A program made the translations under genes and the position numbers. This document shows, piece by piece, positions 2,461-38,323 of a DNA stretch of 64,000 bases (positions are counted from its first letter, which is position 1; every line of letters starts with the position of its first letter). The stretch is from Escherichia coli. Its GTDB lineage: Bacteria; Pseudomonadota; Gammaproteobacteria; Enterobacterales; Enterobacteriaceae. A model generated the notes under the pieces. It searched no databases. It saw only the letters and a list, made by a program, of their open reading frames with translations, and was not told where the DNA came from. The stretch is from the NCBI RefSeq assembly GCF_003334305.1, contig NZ_QOWS01000013.1; one strand, given 5' to 3'.

Positions 2461-3642
2461 TTAGCGTTCAACGATCGCGATGCGGCGGTTATAGATATTC
2501 ATCAGCAGCGAGATAGTCAGGCTGATAATCAGATAGACCGACATGGTCATGGCTATCGTCTCGATGGCTTGCCCCGTCTGGTTCAGCACGGTGCCAGCAA
2601 ACAGCGAAACCATATCGGGATAGCCAATAGCGGCGGCAAGAGAGGAGTTTTTGACGATGTTGAGATACTGGCTGGTTAACGGCGGAATAATCACTCGCAG
2701 TGCCTGGGGAATAATGACCTGGCGTAGCGTAACCGGGTTGGGTAATCCCAGTGACCGAGCCGCTTCATGTTGACCATAAGGCACTGCCTGGATCCCAGCG
2801 CGGATAATCTCGGCGATAAATGCAGATGTATAAACCGAAAGTGCCAGCGTTAAGGCTGCCAGTTCAGGAATTAAAACCATCCCGCCGCGGAAGTTAAAGC
2901 CTCGTAGGGCTGGGACATCCCAGTGTAGTGCTGCGCCAAAAAGCCATTGCGCCAGTAAAGGCAAACCAATGATCAACACTGCGGCGATCGGCCAGGTGCG
3001 GCGCAGTTGTCCGGTCTTTATCTGGTATGTTTTATTAAAGCGGAATAGCCCAACAGAAAGGACTATAGCCATAACAACAGCCAGGATAAACGCAATAAAT
3101 CCGTCTCCCAGCTGCGGTGACGGAATATAAAGCCCACGATTGCTCAAAAAGGCCAGATCAAACGCGCTCACAGCCTGGCGTGGTCCGGGCAAATTGCGCA
3201 ACACGGCAAAGTACCAGAAGAAGATTTGCAGCAGCGGGGGAATATTACGGAAGATCTCAATATAAATTGTGGATAGTTTTCGTAGCAGCCAGTTATCCGA
3301 AAGTCTCGCCAGACCGATAAAGAAGCCTAAAACAGAAGCGAACACAATACACAATGCAGAAACCAGTAGCGTATTGAGTAAGCCGACAATAAAAACGCGT
3401 CCGTAGGTGTCGCCCTGCTGGTAATCGATCAAATGCTGGACAATACCGAAGCCAGCGCCGCGATCCAGAAAGGCAAAACCTGAAGTAATGCCACGATTAT
3501 TGAGATTCGTTACAGTGTTGTGAAATAACCAACCAACAATGCCGACAACAGCAACAACGGCAAGGATCTGGAATAACCAGGCGCGAACCGTAGGGTTGGC
3601 AAAAGAGAGTGAGCCTTTAACGGTTGAGCGGCGATGAGACAT
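2461..3642 (-). CDS. yhdX: Amino-acid ABC transporter permease
   Basis: Hydrophobic permease ORF; track ORF (to 3660) trimmed to internal Met MSHRRSTVKG… matching the ~393-aa protein as I recall it. Confidence 0.88.
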   Translation of the reverse strand: MSHRRSTVKGSLSFANPTVRAWLFQILAVVAVVGIVGWLFHNTVTNLNNRGITSGFAFLDRGAGFGIVQHLIDYQQGDTYGRVFIVGLLNTLLVSALCIVFASVLGFFIGLARLSDNWLLRKLSTIYIEIFRNIPPLLQIFFWYFAVLRNLPGPRQAVSAFDLAFLSNRGLYIPSPQLGDGFIAFILAVVMAIVLSVGLFRFNKTYQIKTGQLRRTWPIAAVLIIGLPLLAQWLFGAALHWDVPALRGFNFRGGMVLIPELAALTLALSVYTSAFIAEIIRAGIQAVPYGQHEAARSLGLPNPVTLRQVIIPQALRVIIPPLTSQYLNIVKNSSLAAAIGYPDMVSLFAGTVLNQTGQAIETIAMTMSVYLIISLTISLLMNIYNRRIAIVER

Positions 3643-3709
3643 AGAAACCTCGGAAAGCATAACGCTGAAGAGAGCGCCGCCGTAGCGACGCCCGTTACCT
3701 CACACCGAC

Positions 3710-4735
3710 TTAACGCACGGGCGGCGCGTACTGAATACCGCCGTTATTCCAGAGATTATTTTGCCCACGTTTAATTTTCAGCGGGCTTTCTGAACCTACG
3801 TTACGCTCGAAAATTTCCGAGTAGTTACCCACCTGTTTGATGATGTTATAGGCCCATTTATTATCCAGCTTCAGATCCTTGCCGTAATCGCCTTCTTTAC
3901 CCAGCAGATGTGCCATATCAGGCGTTGCTGGATTAGCCGCTTTTTCATCGACGTTCTGGGAATTGATGCCCATCTCTTCAGCATTCAGCATGGCGAAAAG
4001 CGTCCAGCGTACAATCGAGAACCATTCATCATCGCCACGACGAACTGCCGGCCCAAGCGGTTCTTTAGAGATAACCTCCGGTAAGACAATCCATTCAGCT
4101 GGGTTGCTTAATTTGATGCGCAGGGCATACAGTTGCGACTGATCCGAGGCCAGCGTATCGCAGCGACCAGATTCCAGTGCCTTCGCTGATTCGTCAGAGC
4201 GATCGAAAGTCACCGGTGTGTACTTCATATTGTTTGCCTTGAAATAGTCGGCAACGTTGAGTTCGGTATCAGTACCCGCCTGAATACAGACGGTAGCGCC
4301 ATCCAGTTCTTTCGCGCTTTTTAGCCCCGCTTTATCGTGCGTCAGGAAGCCAATGCCGTCGTAATAAGTGACGCCGGTAAATGCCATTCCCATCCCGGCA
4401 TCGCGAGATGAAGTCCAGGTCGTATTACGGGAGAGCAAATCCACTTCCCCTGACTGTAAAGCGGTGAAGCGTTCTTTTGCTGTGAGTGGGGTATATTTCA
4501 CTTTCGTGTCGTCACCAAATACAGCAGCGGCAACACCACGACAAACATCAACATCAATACCTGAAAACTTACCGTCTGCATCGGCATAAGAGAACCCAGG
4601 TAATCCATCACTGATCCCGCATTGCACAAAACCTTTTTTCTGAACGGCATCAAGCGTCGCGCCAGCATGCGCCTGATTTGCAACGGCAAGCAGCACGCTG
4701 GCGGCAGCCAGTGTGGCTATCATCATCTTTTTCAT
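3710..4735 (-). CDS. yhdW: Periplasmic amino-acid binding protein of ABC transporter
   Basis: 341-aa ORF with N-terminal signal peptide (MKKMMIATLAAASVLLAVANQAHA); first gene of yhdWXYZ. Confidence 0.92.
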   Translation of the reverse strand: MKKMMIATLAAASVLLAVANQAHAGATLDAVQKKGFVQCGISDGLPGFSYADADGKFSGIDVDVCRGVAAAVFGDDTKVKYTPLTAKERFTALQSGEVDLLSRNTTWTSSRDAGMGMAFTGVTYYDGIGFLTHDKAGLKSAKELDGATVCIQAGTDTELNVADYFKANNMKYTPVTFDRSDESAKALESGRCDTLASDQSQLYALRIKLSNPAEWIVLPEVISKEPLGPAVRRGDDEWFSIVRWTLFAMLNAEEMGINSQNVDEKAANPATPDMAHLLGKEGDYGKDLKLDNKWAYNIIKQVGNYSEIFERNVGSESPLKIKRGQNNLWNNGGIQYAPPVR

Positions 4736-5639: not shown

Positions 5640-8600
5640 TTATCCTTTAAAGCAACGGCGGATCACCACAAAGAACACCGGTACGAAGAAGATTGCCAGC
5701 AACGTTGCAGAGACCATTCCTCCCATTACCCCGATACCCACAGCGTTCTGCGCGCCACTGCCGGCACCGTTACTGATAGCTAGCGGTAATACGCCGAGAA
5801 TAAAGGCGAGAGAGGTCATCAGGATAGGACGCAGACGCATACGTACTGCCATCAGTGTCGCTTCAACAACACCTTTACCCTCTTTCTCCATGAGATCTTT
5901 AGCGAACTCAACAATCAAAATAGCGTTTTTGGCCGACAAGCCAATTGTCGTTAGCAAGCCCACCATAAAGTAGACGTCATTTTTTTGATTAAAGAGTGTT
6001 GCCGCCAGTAGCACGCCGACAATCCCTAACGGCACTACCAACATAACCGAGACAGGAATTGACCAGCTTTCATAGAGTGCAGCAAGGCACAGGAAAACAA
6101 CCACAAAGGAAATTGCTACCAGAGCGGGAGCCTGGTTTCCCGATAAGCGTTCCTGATACGACATACCCGTCCAGTCATAACCAATGCCCGCAGGTAATTT
6201 TGACGCAAGGTTTTCCATCAACGCCATGGCATCGCCGGAACTGGTTCCTGGCGCGGCTTCCCCCTGAATCTCCATTGACGGCAGACCGTTGTAGCGTTCC
6301 AGTCGCGGAGAGCCATACACCCAATGTGAAGTGGTAAAGGCCGAGAATGGCACCATTTCGCCGTTGGCGCTGCGGACATAAAGTTTATCGACATCTTCTG
6401 GCAGCATACGGAATTTGGCATCCGCCTGAACATACACCTTTTTCACGCGACCACGGTCGATGAAGTCGTTAACGTAAGTCCCACCCAACGCCGTTGAAAT
6501 GGTCTGATTGATGTCAGAAAGTGAAACACCTAATGCCTGCGCCTTTTCCTGGTCAACTTCCAGTTTAAACTGCGCGGTGTCTTCCAGGCCATTAGGACGC
6601 ACGCTGACTAAGCTGGCAGGATGTTGCGCCGCCATGCCAAGCAACTGGTTACGGGCCTGGGTCAGGGCATCGTGACCCAGCCCAGCCTGATCAATTAACT
6701 CAAAGTCGAAACCCGTTGCCGTGCCCAGTTCAACAATGGCTGGCATATTGAATGGAATGACAAAACCGTCGCGGATCTTGCCCAATTCCATTTTGGCACG
6801 ATGGATTACCGCTTCCGCACTGTTTTCATCACTATTACGCTCTTCCCACGGTTTCAGACTGACGAAGGCCATACCGGCGTTTTGTGCCTGGCCGCTGAAG
6901 CTAAAGCCGTTAACCGTAAAGACACTTTCAACGTTCGCTTTCTCGTTCTTCAGATAGTAATCCGTCACTTGATCCAACACTTTTTGCGTCCGCTCTTGCG
7001 TCGCGCCAGCGGGTAACTGAATCATGGTCAGAAAGACACCCTGATCCTCTTCAGGTAAGAAGGAAGACGGAAGACGTAAAAACAACACCACCATTCCTGC
7101 AACAATCAGCGCATAGATCAGTAAATATCGTCCTGTGGAACCGAGGATTTTGCCGACGCTGTTGGTGTAGTGGTTAACGCTATGATCGAAGGTGGTATTA
7201 AACCAGCCGAAGAAACCACCCTTATTTTCGTGATGCTCAGCTGAGGTGGGTTTGAGCAGTGTTGCACATAACGCAGGGGTAAGAATCAATGCCACCAGAA
7301 CAGAAAGCGCCATTGCCGAAACGATGGTGATAGAGAACTGGCGATAAATTGCCCCAGTAGAACCGCCGAAGAATGCCATCGGAATAAATACCGCTGACAG
7401 CACCATCGCGATACCCACCAGTGCGCCCTGAATTTGCGACATCGATTTTTCCGTCGCTTCTTTTGGCGGGAGCTTATCCTCCATCATCACGCGCTCGACG
7501 TTCTCCACCACCACTATCGCATCATCGACGAGCAGCCCGATGGCAAGCACCATCCCGAACATCGTTAGTGTGTTGATGGAGTAACCAAAAGCGGCGAGGA
7601 TGGCAAACGTCCCTAATAACACCACGGGTACCGCAATGGTGGGGATCAGCGTTGCTCGCATATTCTGCAAGAACAGATACATCACCAGGAACACCAGCAT
7701 AATGGCTTCGAACAGCGTTTTTACCACTTCGTGAATAGAAAGCTGGACGAATGGCGTGGTGTCATAAGGGTAGAGAACCTTCATTCCCTGCGGGAAGAAT
7801 GGCTGTAATTCCGCCAGTTTTGCCTTAATGGCTTTCGCGGTATCGAGAGCATTCGCGCCGGTTGCCAGCTTAATCCCCAGGCCCGCCGCCGGTTTTCCGT
7901 TGATACGAGCGATAACGTTATAGTTTTCACCGCCAAGTTCAACTCGTGCGACATCTTTCAGGCGTACCACCGAGCCGTCACTGTTTACGCGCAGGGTTAC
8001 TTTGCCGAATTCTTCCGGATTTTTTAACCGCGTCTGAGCAATAATTGAGGCGTTCAACTGTTGCCCTGGTAACGCTGGCGTTCCGCCCAACTGTCCGGCA
8101 GCGATCTGATCGTTCTGTGCCTTCAACTGGTTAATCACATCAACCGGTGTCAGTTTATATTTGTTTAGCAGATCGGCGTCCAGCCAGATACGCATCGCAT
8201 ACTGTGCGCCGAAAAGCTGTACGTCACCGACGCCATTCAGACGGCTAAGCGTATCTTTAACGTTAGAGGCCACATAGTCCGAGATATCGTCCTGTGTGGT
8301 GTCTGGGTTATCAGAGACAAAGCCCGCCACCATCAAATAGCTGCTACTGGACTTTTCAACACTGATCCCCTGCTGCTGAACCTCCTGCGGCAGCAACGGC
8401 GTGGCGAGCTGGAGTTTGTTCTGCACCTGCACTTGCGCGATATCAGGATCGGTCCCGGACTGGAAGGTAAGGGTAATTGTCACGCTACCGGCGGAATCGC
8501 TGGTGGAGGACATATACATCAGGTTATCGATACCGTTCATATTCTGTTCGATAACCTGCGTCACCGTATCCTGCACGGTCTGCGCATCAGCGCCCGGATA

Positions 8601-8744
8601 GTTTGCTGAAACAGAAACCGCAGGCGGTGCAATGGTTGGATACTGAGCGACGGGTAATTGTAGGATCGCCAGTGCGCCCGCCATCATCAGAATAATGGCC
8701 AGCACCCATGCAAATATCGGTCGTCGAATAAAAAAGTTTGCCAT
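5640..8744 (-). CDS. acrF: RND multidrug efflux pump, inner-membrane transporter
   Basis: 1034-aa [26 protein letters not shown]… typical AcrB/AcrF RND transporter; downstream of acrE. Confidence 0.96.
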
Positions 8745-8755
8745 GTCAGATTACC

Positions 8756-9913
8756 TTACTTCGATGCAGTATCTGCGGGGGTATCGGTAGTGGCTTTAAC
8801 CTGCTCTCCCGGACGCGCTTTTTGCAGGCTGCTGACAATGACTTGATCGCCAGATTTCAGACCTTCGCTAATCAACCATTTATCGCCAATCGCCTGACTG
8901 GCAACGACAGGGCGCGCTTCCACCTGACTTTTATCGTTAACAATCAGCACGGTTGCATCACCACGCGGTGTGCGGCTAACGCCTTGTTGCGGGATAAGAA
9001 TGGCGTCAGGTTGGACGCCTTCATCAATCCGTGCGCGCACAAACATACCCGGCAAAAGCGTATGTTGCGGGTTAGGGAAGACGGCACGTAGGGTTATGGA
9101 GCCGGTGCTTTCATCAACGGTCACATCAGAGAATTGCAGCGTACCTTTCAGGGGATAGGTTTGACCGTTTTCCATGACCAACTCTACGTTGCTGGTGGCG
9201 TTTTCCTTATGCAAATTTCCTTGCTCTACGGATTGCTTCAGCCTCATAAAATCGTTGCTGGATTGGGTCACATCAACGTAGATAGGATCGAGCTGCTGGA
9301 CAGTCGCCAGTTCAGTCGTTTGCCCATTAGTGACAAGAGCGCCTTCGGTCACGGTCGATTTGCCGATACGTCCGCTAATTGGCGCAGTCACTTTGGTATA
9401 AGCGAGATTGATGCGAGCGCTTTCGACTGTGGCTTTTGCGGCAATCACGGCGGCATCGGCCTGGCGAGCATCAGCAATGGCCTGGTCGTACTCCTGCTGG
9501 CTGATGTATTTCGTACCCACGAGCGGAACGTAACGTTTTACCGTCAAATGCGCGATGGCGGCGGCGGCTTCACTTTTCGCCAGTTCGCCTTTCGCGCTGT
9601 CATAATTTGCCTGATAGGTCGCGGGATCGATCTGGTACAGGGACTGGCCTGCTTGTACATCGCTGCCTTCAGTGAAATTACGATTCAGTACGATCCCGCT
9701 AACCTGTGGGCGAACTTCGGCTATACGGTAAGCATTGGTGCGGCCTGGTAATTCAGTCTTAACTTCTAACGGGGCCGTTTTCACAATATGAACGGTAACC
9801 TGCGGTTCACCGACGTGAGCTTTCTCTTCTCCCTTATCGTTACAACCGGCGATTAAAGCCGCGGAGATCAGAATAAAGGAGGGCAGGAGGAAAAACCTGG
9901 CATGTTTCGTCAT
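8756..9913 (-). CDS. acrE: RND efflux periplasmic adaptor (membrane fusion) lipoprotein
   Basis: 385-aa ORF with lipobox LIAGC; AcrA-like adaptor immediately upstream of acrF. Confidence 0.95.
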   Translation of the reverse strand: MTKHARFFLLPSFILISAALIAGCNDKGEEKAHVGEPQVTVHIVKTAPLEVKTELPGRTNAYRIAEVRPQVSGIVLNRNFTEGSDVQAGQSLYQIDPATYQANYDSAKGELAKSEAAAAIAHLTVKRYVPLVGTKYISQQEYDQAIADARQADAAVIAAKATVESARINLAYTKVTAPISGRIGKSTVTEGALVTNGQTTELATVQQLDPIYVDVTQSSNDFMRLKQSVEQGNLHKENATSNVELVMENGQTYPLKGTLQFSDVTVDESTGSITLRAVFPNPQHTLLPGMFVRARIDEGVQPDAILIPQQGVSRTPRGDATVLIVNDKSQVEARPVVASQAIGDKWLISEGLKSGDQVIVSSLQKARPGEQVKATTDTPADTASK

Positions 9914-10311
9914 TACTATTCCTCAAAAAACCAAAAGCGCGTTATTTACCCAGAAAGGCAACGCGTTAACTCGCAGAAAGAAAAATACAGTTTGCTATCC
10001 TACAAATTATCATTCGTCGATGTAAGGAATAGTTATGAATACTGGCGTCTCAAGGCACATAAACACAAAAAAAGATTAATATTCTACTGTTTTATTTTGA
10101 CGCGGGTTGAAAGAGGCAGAATTAAAACCTCGTAAATTGAAATATATATTCATGTGGCGAATGTATTTTAGGTAAATAATATATATTATTTATTTGACGA
10201 TTTATAGCAACTCAATATTAGCCTCTCGTATAAATACACATTAGGTGATAGATTAACCTTCGCTATTTTCTCACTCTGTGTCGAATATATTTATTTCCTG
10301 AATAATTAATC

Positions 10312-10974
10312 ATGGCAAAAAGAACCAAAGCCGAAGCTCTGAAGACCCGGCAAGAACTGATTGAAACTGCCATCGCCCAGTTTGCGCAGCATGGCGTAAG
10401 CAAGACGACACTCAACGACATTGCCGACGCTGCTAACGTTACGCGTGGCGCTATCTACTGGCACTTCGAAAACAAGACTCAACTGTTTAATGAGATGTGG
10501 TTGCAACAGCCTTCATTGCGGGAGTTAATCCAGGAACACTTGACGGCTGGATTAGAGCATGACCCGTTTCAACAATTGCGTGAAAAATTGATTGTCGGCT
10601 TGCAATATATTGCCAAAATTCCCCGCCAGCAGGCGTTGCTGAAAATCTTATATCACAAATGTGAATTTAATGATGAGATGCTGGCCGAGGGAGTGATACG
10701 CGAAAAGATGGGCTTCAATCCGCAGACTCTCCGCGAAGTATTGCAGGCGTGTCAGCAACAAGGTTGTGTAGCAAATAACCTCGATTTAGATGTTGTGATG
10801 ATTATTATTAATGGTGCCTTCAGCGGAATTGTTCAAAACTGGTTAATGAATATGGCGGGTTATGATCTTTATAAACAAGCCCCCGCTCTGGTCGATAACG
10901 TATTAAGAATGTTCATGCCAGATGAAAACATAACGAAATTAATTCATCAAACGAATGAATTAAGTGTCATGTAA
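10312..10974 (+). CDS. acrS: TetR-family repressor of acrEF/acrAB
   Basis: 220-aa ORF with N-terminal TetR HTH (…TRQELIETAIAQFAQHGVSKTTLNDIADAANVTRGAIYWHF…), divergent from acrE. Confidence 0.94.
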   Translation: MAKRTKAEALKTRQELIETAIAQFAQHGVSKTTLNDIADAANVTRGAIYWHFENKTQLFNEMWLQQPSLRELIQEHLTAGLEHDPFQQLREKLIVGLQYIAKIPRQQALLKILYHKCEFNDEMLAEGVIREKMGFNPQTLREVLQACQQQGCVANNLDLDVVMIIINGAFSGIVQNWLMNMAGYDLYKQAPALVDNVLRMFMPDENITKLIHQTNELSVM

Positions 10975-10976
10975 AT

Positions 10977-11156
10977 TCACATTCTGTCCTGAAAATTCAG
11001 TTCGTCACAGTTAACCAGTTTTAGTGGATTAACTGAGTTCATATTGCGGCATTTGTCTGTTTCTGTTGCCAGCAGTTCAATCCACTGCATCAGTAAAGTA
11101 TCAAACAGAAAAACGAAGACAGCGAAAACGACGAGCCACCAATACTTGCGAATCAT
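10977..11156 (-). CDS. yhdU: Small membrane protein
   Basis: Track ORF trimmed to MIRKYWWLVVFAVFVFLFDTLLMQW… (59 aa) with one TM helix; conserved position between acrS and yhdJ. Confidence 0.75.
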   Translation of the reverse strand: MIRKYWWLVVFAVFVFLFDTLLMQWIELLATETDKCRNMNSVNPLKLVNCDELNFQDRM

Positions 11157-11239
11157 TACCTGAGCCTGTGTATGTTTAACCAAGTCTGGCAGGAAATATA
11201 CACGAAATGAATAATCTGAAAACCAGGCTTACACTTCCT

Positions 11240-12124
11240 TTACTTTGCAATGAGATCGGGGTCAACTTCGCTTAACCGGCTTCGTTTTGACAGGTTGCCG
11301 GTCTTTCTTTTTTTCACTTTCGTCAGTTCTTCCGCAGAGTAATGCGACGCGACATCCAGCCGTCGAAGCCCCATTTTGATGTACTCGCTGTTGATCTCAA
11401 TACCAATGAATTTTCGCCCGCTGGAGACGGCTACGGCACCGGTAGTAAAGCTACCGGCAAACGGGTCGAGAACGATATCGCCTGGGTTGGAAGAGGCGAG
11501 AATAATGCGTTTCAGTAAGGCTTCCGGTTTTTGCGTCGGGTGGTTCTCATATTCATCCATCAAATAACGCACGCGCGGAAAATCCCAGACGTTACCCGGT
11601 ACTTTTTGATGATTGTATGGCTGTGGAGGATTTTTGCGATAATCGATCAACGCGCGCTGCGATCCGGTTTTGGCTTCTACCAGAATAGCATCACCGTTGA
11701 ATGTGTAGTTCTTTGCGTCTTTCACCATCATCAGGATGGGTTCGTACATGGAGCCGTAGTGTTTTTTCGCCTGTACTCCAGAACTGTCATATGACCAGAC
11801 GATGCGACTTTTGATGGTAAAAAGCTTGCGGCACTGGAGATCGATAAAGGGCATGTTTTCCGTGCTGTTCATGATGTACATGCTGCCCTGCTTTTTCAGA
11901 ACGCGGTGGCACTCTGCAATCACTTCAAACAGCCAGTCGATAAACAGATCTTCTTTCCAGGCTTCGATCAGACCATCAAAATTTTTACCGATGTTATATG
12001 GTGGGTCGGCAAAGATCAGATCGACACTTTCGGCGGGGATCTTTTTAAGTTCGGCAAGCGCATCACCGTGAATAATGGTCTTAGCTTCATTACCAAACCG
12101 GGTCGGTTCACATCCTGTTCTCAT
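11240..12124 (-). CDS. yhdJ: DNA adenine (N6) methyltransferase
   Basis: ORF contains the DPPY motif (…VDLIFADPPYNIGK…) characteristic of N6-adenine/N4-cytosine MTases; immediately downstream of fis. Confidence 0.92.
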   Translation of the reverse strand: MRTGCEPTRFGNEAKTIIHGDALAELKKIPAESVDLIFADPPYNIGKNFDGLIEAWKEDLFIDWLFEVIAECHRVLKKQGSMYIMNSTENMPFIDLQCRKLFTIKSRIVWSYDSSGVQAKKHYGSMYEPILMMVKDAKNYTFNGDAILVEAKTGSQRALIDYRKNPPQPYNHQKVPGNVWDFPRVRYLMDEYENHPTQKPEALLKRIILASSNPGDIVLDPFAGSFTTGAVAVSSGRKFIGIEINSEYIKMGLRRLDVASHYSAEELTKVKKRKTGNLSKRSRLSEVDPDLIAK

Positions 12125-37695: not shown

Positions 37696-37959
37696 TTATT
37701 TGTACAGTTCAGCCGTAGCGTGCCAGGTGTCACCGCTACGAGCTTCAGTAATCTGGTAGGCCGTTGCGCCTTTCTCTTCCGCTTTTTTGTTCAGCATTTC
37801 ACGTATATCCATTGGCGAAGACGCCACACCACTTACGGATACGGTCCCGATTGCTTCACGGTTTTGTGCTTGTGCAGCATCAATGGAGTCGGCAGCGAAT
37901 GCACCGAAAGAGAGAACAGAAAGTACGCTTAATGCAGCAACAGTGGTTTTGATTTTCAT
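37696..37959 (-). CDS. yhcN: Periplasmic stress-induced protein (DUF1471/YhcN family)
   Basis: 87-aa ORF with signal peptide MKIKTTVAALSVLSVLSFGAFA. Confidence 0.9.
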   Translation of the reverse strand: MKIKTTVAALSVLSVLSFGAFAADSIDAAQAQNREAIGTVSVSGVASSPMDIREMLNKKAEEKGATAYQITEARSGDTWHATAELYK

Positions 37960-38323
37960 GATTTTTACCTCGACATAATCTTTTTGCTGGGTCTTTGTTT
38001 CGTGACCCTTATCACAAAATCAAGTATACACTAATTATTGAACTAATTAATACCACGCTAACTGTTTCTGTTGATACTAAGTGTTAAAAATGTGAATGTT
38101 AATAACAAAAAAGAATTAAAAATACGGTTATTTATCGTTAATTCTAGTGTTTTCAATTAGATAATGAATTTTGCATAATGTGCTTTTTTTACCTTATGTA
38201 TTCATTGTGTGAATGACATGTCGCAGTAAAACGCACTATTCGTTAAATGTATCGCAGGAGAAAGCAGGGGGTTGAGAGGGATAAGCAACATTTTCCCCGC
38301 CGCCAGAAGCGACGGGGCAGAGA

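Follow-up and report, generated by a model that had tools for sequence, protein, structure and literature searches.

Organisation of the acrS-acrEF locus

The spacer described here lies between two divergently transcribed genes of the multidrug efflux locus acrS-acrEF, within a 64-kb window (the whole stretch of Escherichia coli DNA that was analysed). Its limits are set by the list of open reading frames and their start codons: the acrE start codon occupies minus-strand positions 9913-9911 and acrS begins with its ATG at 10312 on the plus strand, leaving exactly 398 bp (9914-10311) between them. On one side lie acrE (8756-9913, minus strand), which encodes the 385-aa periplasmic adaptor of the AcrEF-TolC pump, and acrF (5640-8744, minus strand), which encodes the 1034-aa RND permease; on the other side lies acrS, also referred to as envR (10312-10974, plus strand), encoding a TetR-family repressor of 220 aa. 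All three genes are intact, and acrF is free of the 45-nt insertion of the O157 type (described in PMC10202319). Among the NCBIfam families, AcrS matches the equivalog NF007430 (acrEF/envCD operon regulator) with 433.7 bits against a cut-off of 274, whereas AcrE and AcrF are assigned to the AcrA-like RND adaptor family and the AcrB-like RND permease family, respectively. A 1.1-kb stretch around the spacer was found by megablast in 5,376 of 5,426 complete E. coli genomes, annotated as acrE and acrS, and identical DNA carries these same gene names in RefSeq. Since the open reading frames, the NCBIfam identities and the RefSeq annotation agree, 9914-10311 is the acrE-acrS spacer, flanked in divergent orientation by acrE (followed by acrF) and the TetR-family gene acrS. 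The K-12 envR(acrS)-acrEF region (b3264/b3265; NC_000913.3 3413466-3413863) is the same locus, from which the window differs by allelic substitutions only, and the neighbouring genes yhdU, yhdJ, fis and dusB are common to both.

A Shine-Dalgarno sequence for acrE, GAGGAA, is located at 9919-9924 on the minus strand, 5 nt 5' of the ATG; it is conserved, and reads AAGGAA in Citrobacter. The curated K-12 record holds no annotated feature in the spacer, and a scan of 9500-11300 placed no Rfam family in it. A sub-threshold Rfam match to Bcj14, a Burkholderia sRNA family (39 bits, below the gathering score of 59, E = 6.5e-5), sits at 9627-9814 on the minus strand, within the acrE coding sequence, and most likely reflects a family model that overlaps an RND-adaptor gene rather than an sRNA.

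Base composition of the spacer

An earlier note on this DNA had described the spacer as about 400 bp long, very AT-rich and containing many A/T tracts, and all three statements hold. The GC content of its 398 bp is 31.4%, compared with 51.5% for the 64-kb window; the GC minimum of the entire 64 kb for stretches of this length falls at 9912-10309, and only 0.02% of such stretches are as low. The 260 bp proximal to acrS (10052-10311) have a GC content of 28%. Elsewhere in the window, stretches nearly as AT-rich (32-35% GC) are found at 37897-38294, 48560-48957 and 61622-62019. The spacer includes 18 runs of A or T of at least 6 nt and nine A/T homopolymers of at least 4 nt, although the number of tracts matches, and does not exceed, what the composition predicts (7.1 +/- 2.3 in shuffled sequences). 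Helical phasing of the tracts was not detected, A/T triplets in the spacer showing no 10-11-bp periodicity, and the repeats in the spacer are short AT-rich inverted or direct ones that are typical for the composition, none of them conserved.

Silencing by H-NS and activation by insertion sequences

AcrEF serves as the main back-up of the multidrug pump AcrAB-TolC: once activated, it restores resistance in cells whose AcrB has been lost or inhibited, a point that bears on efflux-inhibitor strategies. In wild-type K-12, acrEF is hardly expressed, and deletion of hns raises its expression (Nishino and Yamaguchi 2004, as cited in PMC4462101, PMC6599122 and PMC10202319); the silencing has been attributed to H-NS in these three papers as well as in PMC9780535. 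According to papers citing the original work (PMC4462101, PMC6599122), IS1 or IS2 upstream of acrEF activates the operon in acrB mutants. The reports of IS activation named in such accounts concern acrB-defective or drug-selected mutants (Kobayashi 2001, Jellen-Ritter and Kern 2001, Olliver 2005), and the Salmonella acrEF operon is described there as likewise activated, by IS1 or IS10. In evolved acrB-deleted strains (PMC9783932), the activating changes comprise IS1 at -138, IS2 at -86 or -90 with duplication of GTAGG, IS5 at -163 and -94, and the single-nucleotide changes T>G at -92 and G>A at -86; as reported in the same paper, earlier work traced the effect of the IS chiefly to promoters within the element and not to relief of silencing. 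The natural conditions of AcrEF expression are acknowledged to be an open question in PMC4462101.

The earlier note, which held acrEF to be normally silent and to be activated by IS insertions in resistant mutants, is in line with this literature (PMC4462101, PMC6599122, PMC9783932), with a qualification regarding the silence: genomic SELEX with K-12 identified a site for H-NS and a site for the RpoD (sigma-70) holoenzyme in the spacer, both in vitro (Shimada et al., PMC3946193). H-NS had been named in that note only as a check, not as the silencing mechanism. Because RNA polymerase binds the spacer in vitro (PMC3946193), the spacer is not promoter-less, and because H-NS binds it too, the silence stems from repression in addition to weak signals. 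The SELEX-chip method cannot place or orient a promoter inside the 398 bp (PMC3946193).

When compared with H-NS-silenced control regions as a class, the spacer has an A+T content far above background but neither a nucleation motif nor phased A-tracts. For the motif TCGATAAATT, which we take to be the high-affinity H-NS nucleation 10-mer, no match with up to two mismatches was obtained in 9914-10311. A nucleation motif or phased A-tract curvature is typical of H-NS-silenced promoters, not obligatory. As both are absent here, the assignment of H-NS binding rests on composition together with the published SELEX and genetic work. Searches of published supplements returned no in-vivo H-NS ChIP or transcription start site data for the spacer.

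An uninterrupted allele and its variation within E. coli

In 5,215 of 5,426 complete E. coli genomes, the spacer is matched by a single block that spans at least 80% of the query. The full-length matches listed, a sample of 59 taken across the whole ranking of about 5,200 genomes, all span 398 bp and are 93-100% identical. The window spacer aligns without gaps to K-12, CFT073 and O157:H7, and its identity to K-12 is 97.7% over the same 398 bp, with nine substitutions, mostly central (10043-10196). The published activation sites are identical to those of K-12 save for two substitutions within the IS1 target CTGGCGTCT (10042-10050), which is present once and without an insert, as is the IS2 target at 9999-10003. 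The window is hence not a member of the IS-activated class, in which IS1, IS2, IS5 or IS10 lies between acrS and acrE, and the earlier view that the locus is free of IS elements and in its native state is confirmed by colinearity with the species-wide allele and by the empty IS targets. As none of the known activating changes is present, the window has the wild-type, silent state of the locus. This is the common allele, silent and IS-free, of a well-studied control region, and nothing unexpected follows for the window from carrying it. More generally, the spacer can be read for whether the back-up pump of a strain is silent, as here, or pre-activated.

Within E. coli, the spacer diverges by 2.3-6.8%, as against 1.3-5.0% for third codon positions of the flanking genes. 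Substitutions concentrate in the central 100 bp (10094-10196). The B2 allele (CFT073) is 6.8% divergent, and no length change occurs among the 59 full-length matches listed.

A candidate core promoter for acrE

A promoter scan returned no sigma-70-like site on the acrE (minus) strand. In a rough position weight matrix (PWM) scan with frequencies from classical compilations, the best minus-strand score was 9.4, compared with 18.3 for the consensus and about 10.1 for lacP1, and 86% of composition-matched simulated sequences reach at least this value. The best score being at chance level, the earlier statement that acrE has no strong consensus promoter stands, nor did the scans detect the strong constitutive promoter that the earlier note had named as evidence against its reading.

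Sequence conservation was more informative. Orthologous loci were collected by scanning species-representative genomes with a degenerate YWHFENK pattern, which proved less specific than expected, and the alignment comprises E. albertii, a divergent E. coli, five Citrobacter and Pseudocitrobacter (at least eight Enterobacteriaceae, Salmonella not among them). The orthologous spacers are 376-413 bp long and have a GC content of 30-35%, in loci of 46-52% GC, and between genera no more than 46-59% of the spacer is identical to the window. The longest stretches of conservation are two blocks, which in acrE sense read TATTCCTTACATCGA (15 nt, 10031-10017) and ATAATTTGTAGGATAGC (17 nt, 10010-9994), the latter conserved in at least eight of nine lineages from four genera; between the blocks the bases vary, and no gap occurs in any of the species aligned. 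The 17-nt block contains TAGGAT (9997-10002, minus strand), a putative acrE -10 hexamer, and the 15-nt block contains CTTACA (10021-10026, minus strand), a putative -35 hexamer, so that CTTACA-18-TAGGAT spans 10026-9997 with a spacing of 18 bp. In the rough PWM scan it scores 6.6 and is surpassed by several sites of the spacer that are not conserved.

The published lesions can be placed on this map. The G>A change at -86 corresponds to position 9999 and converts TAGGAT to TAGAAT, raising the rough PWM score from 6.6 to 8.8; the GTAGG duplicated by IS2 is 10003-9999, inside the -10 block; and the IS1 target at 10042-10050 is located 15 bp upstream of the -35 hexamer, with the laboratory insertion site at -138 within 1 bp of it. 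Because the blocks are conserved, their 18-bp spacing is free of gaps and the published lesions fall on or just upstream of them, we infer that CTTACA-18-TAGGAT is a weak, conserved acrE core promoter. Transcription would then start near 9990, and the leader, about 77 nt in length, would have GAGGAA at its end. This promoter model offers no obvious explanation for the T>G up-mutation at -92, as position 10005 corresponds to -15 when counted from the hexamer. To the known region, the present analysis contributes the map of conserved blocks, which makes sense of the published activation sites, and a small survey of naturally occurring IS variants.

Natural insertions and deletions

A split spacer is present in about 16-20 of the 5,426 genomes, and four IS1 cases and one partial deletion were identified among these. 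In AR436 (NZ_CP029111.1; IS1 at 1952-2719 of locus L001) and AR_0374 (NZ_CP027126.1), a 768-bp IS1 is bounded by a 9-bp duplication of 10042-10050, within 1 bp of the laboratory hotspot; IS1 at this activation hotspot was seen in these two of the 5,426 complete genomes, both AR-labelled. Because IS1 occupies the site seen in laboratory-evolved acrB-deleted mutants, the AcrEF pump may be pre-activated in AR436 and AR_0374. IS1 is further found at 9968-9976 in XJ55, at 10151-10159 in RM9088 and at 9904-9912, on the acrE start codon, in AVS0247. The left end of IS1 faces acrE in all of the spacer insertions and the opposite orientation occurs in none, a bias that is not significant as there are only four independent events. 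At the IS1 junctions of AR436, XJ55 and RM9088, a hybrid promoter was looked for and no site of consensus quality was found (TTGGCA-17-TATTCA scores 5.9). Judged from sequence only, shifting the upstream AT-rich DNA away from acrE would explain activation as well as a promoter brought in by the IS.

Other variants affect the genes on either side. In acrE, 13KWH46 carries IS1 with a duplication of 9713-9721 and AR_0114 carries IS903B with junctions at 9710/9722; two different elements have thus entered at nearly the same point (9710-9722), which may be a hotspot or a coincidence. An IS lies inside acrS in PK6 and Z1323HEC0393. An IS1-flanked deletion of acrEF ends at 10251 in 035152 (locus L005, IS1 at 3233-4000), and a further IS1-flanked acrEF deletion defines the EC26 group (L133, IS1 at 3501-4268). 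The latter comprises at least nine genomes including EC26 (hits H101-H110), in which IS1 abuts a truncated acrS with the junction at 10351 and acrEF and part of yhdW are gone; the deletion in 035152 is independent of it and similar in form. As acrEF is deleted there, some clinical lineages no longer have the back-up pump. Most of the spacer is missing from about 145-195 of the 5,426 genomes.

Other sequence elements in the spacer

The best sigma-70 match in the spacer, TTAAAA-17-TATATT, is on the plus strand (10122-10150), and the best PWM match on the minus strand, a weak one, is TTGAGT-19-AATAAT (10185-10215), 271 nt from the acrE ATG. These hexamer pairs, the top-ranked sites of their strands in the present PWM scan, are those predicted in PMC3946193 as the envR and acrE promoters, respectively, and neither is conserved outside E. 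coli. A candidate acrS extended -10 element, TGaTAGATT, is located at 10246-10254 (plus strand), with GTGATA-ATT conserved in Escherichia and Citrobacter; together (10225-10254), the conserved CTCGTATAAATA upstream of it (10225-10236) and GTGATAGATT could form an extended -10 promoter for acrS with a leader of about 50 nt.

A marbox-like element, AAGGCACATAAACACAAAAA (10052-10071, plus strand), which is backward relative to acrE and a candidate only, was put forward in 2008 as a backward class-I marbox (PMC2453137), acrEF not being an accepted member of the mar regulon in the same paper. The GCAC and CAAA cores of the element are retained in the different genera.

The 24-bp AcrR/EnvR operator, verified in the K-12 acrA-acrR spacer, is absent from the acrS-acrE spacer at up to three mismatches; the best ungapped match has 14 of 24 positions, which 81% of shuffled sequences reach, and local alignment of the acrS-acrE and acrR-acrA spacers gives only a weak, gapped match of 25 nt. 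A degenerate look-alike of the operator, ATATATTCATGTGGCGAATGTAT (10144-10166, plus strand), is not a full palindrome. Its right part alone, (G/A)TGAAT(G/A)TAT at 10157-10166, is conserved across genera, and its would-be left arm coincides with the part of the spacer that is most variable within E. coli. Compared with regions controlled through TetR-type operators, the spacer thus lacks a palindromic operator for the adjacent repressor and contains only the half-site-like GTGAATGTAT, which one substitution relative to K-12 turns into GCGAATGTAT in the window. No FNR box (TTGAT-N4-ATCAA) was found in the spacer at up to two mismatches.

A model for acrEF silence and its alternatives

We regard it as very likely that the spacer is a native control region shared by acrEF and acrS, which is kept silent by the combination of a weak, conserved acrE promoter and H-NS acting on AT-rich DNA. 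The identity of the locus, its composition, the absence of IS elements, the conserved blocks and the mapping of lesions onto them were computed here; H-NS dependence, binding of RNA polymerase and H-NS in vitro, and IS activation are taken from the literature; and the roles of the blocks as acrE -35 and -10 elements and the position of the transcription start are our interpretation. In such a model, the weak sigma-70 core (-35 CTTACA at 10026-10021, 18 bp, -10 TAGGAT at 10002-9997) would drive acrE, and the roughly 260 bp of 28%-GC DNA upstream of it would carry the acrS promoter or promoters and bind H-NS. Poor hexamers and coating by H-NS would keep acrEF, and acrS too, essentially silent in laboratory conditions, and escape might be achieved by an IS that enters a short way upstream of the core promoter (IS1 at 10042-10050), by an IS within it (IS2 at 9999-10003, IS5 nearby) or by a better -10 hexamer (G>A at 9999).

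The acrE promoter could instead be the distal TTGAGT-19-AATAAT (10215-10185), with a leader of about 260 nt and the proximal blocks binding another factor. Its hexamers, besides forming the top sigma-70 match of the minus strand, are the pair put forward in PMC3946193, where RNA polymerase bound the spacer in vitro, although SELEX-chip gives neither position nor direction within the 398 bp. We nevertheless consider this arrangement unlikely: the score of 9.4 is at chance level, the hexamers are 19 bp apart, conservation of the site does not extend to E. albertii, Citrobacter or Pseudocitrobacter, and all the published activating IS elements (-86 to -163) would sever it from acrE, yet expression rises. 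A different division of labour, in which silence is due mainly to AcrS bound at a local operator, as with AcrR at acrAB, and AT-richness and H-NS are secondary, is suggested by the classic divergent layout of TetR regulator and RND operon, by the conservation across genera of the half-operator-like GTGAATGTAT at 10157-10166 and by the listing of acrEF as EnvR-repressed (PMC2453137). It appears quite improbable in view of the poor operator match, no better than that of most shuffled sequences, the variability of the left arm within E. coli and the altered half-site GCGAATGTAT of the window. Moreover, EnvR/AcrS predominantly represses acrAB, not acrEF, and envR is itself unexpressed through H-NS silencing (PMC9780535), and natural isolates with an IS-disrupted acrS exist.

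Least expected of all is that the AT-richness results from drift in relaxed non-coding DNA and that acrEF is silent simply because its promoter is weak. The spacer does diverge about as much as third codon positions do, its A/T tracts are unphased and as numerous as the composition predicts, and no H-NS motif is present in it. Drift fits poorly, however, with a GC content held at 30-35% and a length held near 400 bp in four genera while most of the sequence has turned over, with the position of the spacer as the lowest-GC stretch of 64 kb, and with the constant 398 bp of all 59 listed full-length matches even though substitutions reach 6.8%, and the published derepression upon hns deletion and the SELEX binding point to function; we therefore hold it to be very unlikely. 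Three short elements are kept across the four genera within AT-rich DNA that otherwise changes fast, namely the putative core promoter with its fixed 18-bp spacing, the marbox-like GCAC-N7-CAAA 25 bp upstream of the -35 hexamer, and the operator-like GTGAATGTAT. From their conservation one may speculate, as a possibility to which we give modest weight, that acrEF has a genuine physiological induction, in which an activator of the MarA/SoxS/Rob/RamA type would counter H-NS at a class-I promoter, with cross-talk of AcrS and AcrR at the half-operator. If so, IS insertions would merely short-circuit a natural route of acrEF induction.

Comparison with related control regions

A paralogous locus is acrR-acrAB, which like acrS-acrEF consists of a TetR-family repressor gene placed divergently beside an adaptor and permease operon of the RND type, has a marbox-like element upstream of the pump promoter and shares the motif GAATGTAT with the acrS-acrE spacer; EnvR also binds the acrAB operator (PMC9780535). 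In contrast to the 398-bp acrS-acrE spacer, which is without a palindrome, the acrR-acrA spacer is 141 bp long and contains a perfect 24-bp palindromic operator. The acrS-acrE spacer is also far more AT-rich, and acrEF is silent whereas acrAB is constitutive.

Similarities extend to operons of other function. The bgl operon is likewise an H-NS-silenced cryptic operon of E. coli that has AT-rich control DNA and a weak promoter and can be activated by IS elements. The fucAO operon is another H-NS-silenced one; like acrEF it combines AT-rich control DNA with a weak promoter, is silent in wild-type cells and becomes active when IS1, IS2 or IS5 inserts near the promoter (PMC11894529). At acrEF, activation may proceed through an IS-borne or hybrid promoter or through relief of silencing, and the IS1 junction of AR436 is without a consensus hybrid promoter.

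Between E. coli and Citrobacter or Pseudocitrobacter, AcrS is 62-67% identical and AcrE 83-89%, the regulator thus evolving much faster. The YWHFENK motif is widespread in TetR regulators adjoining RND adaptor genes, in Pseudomonas, Paraburkholderia and others, and loci of this type usually have shorter spacers, of about 180-460 bp.
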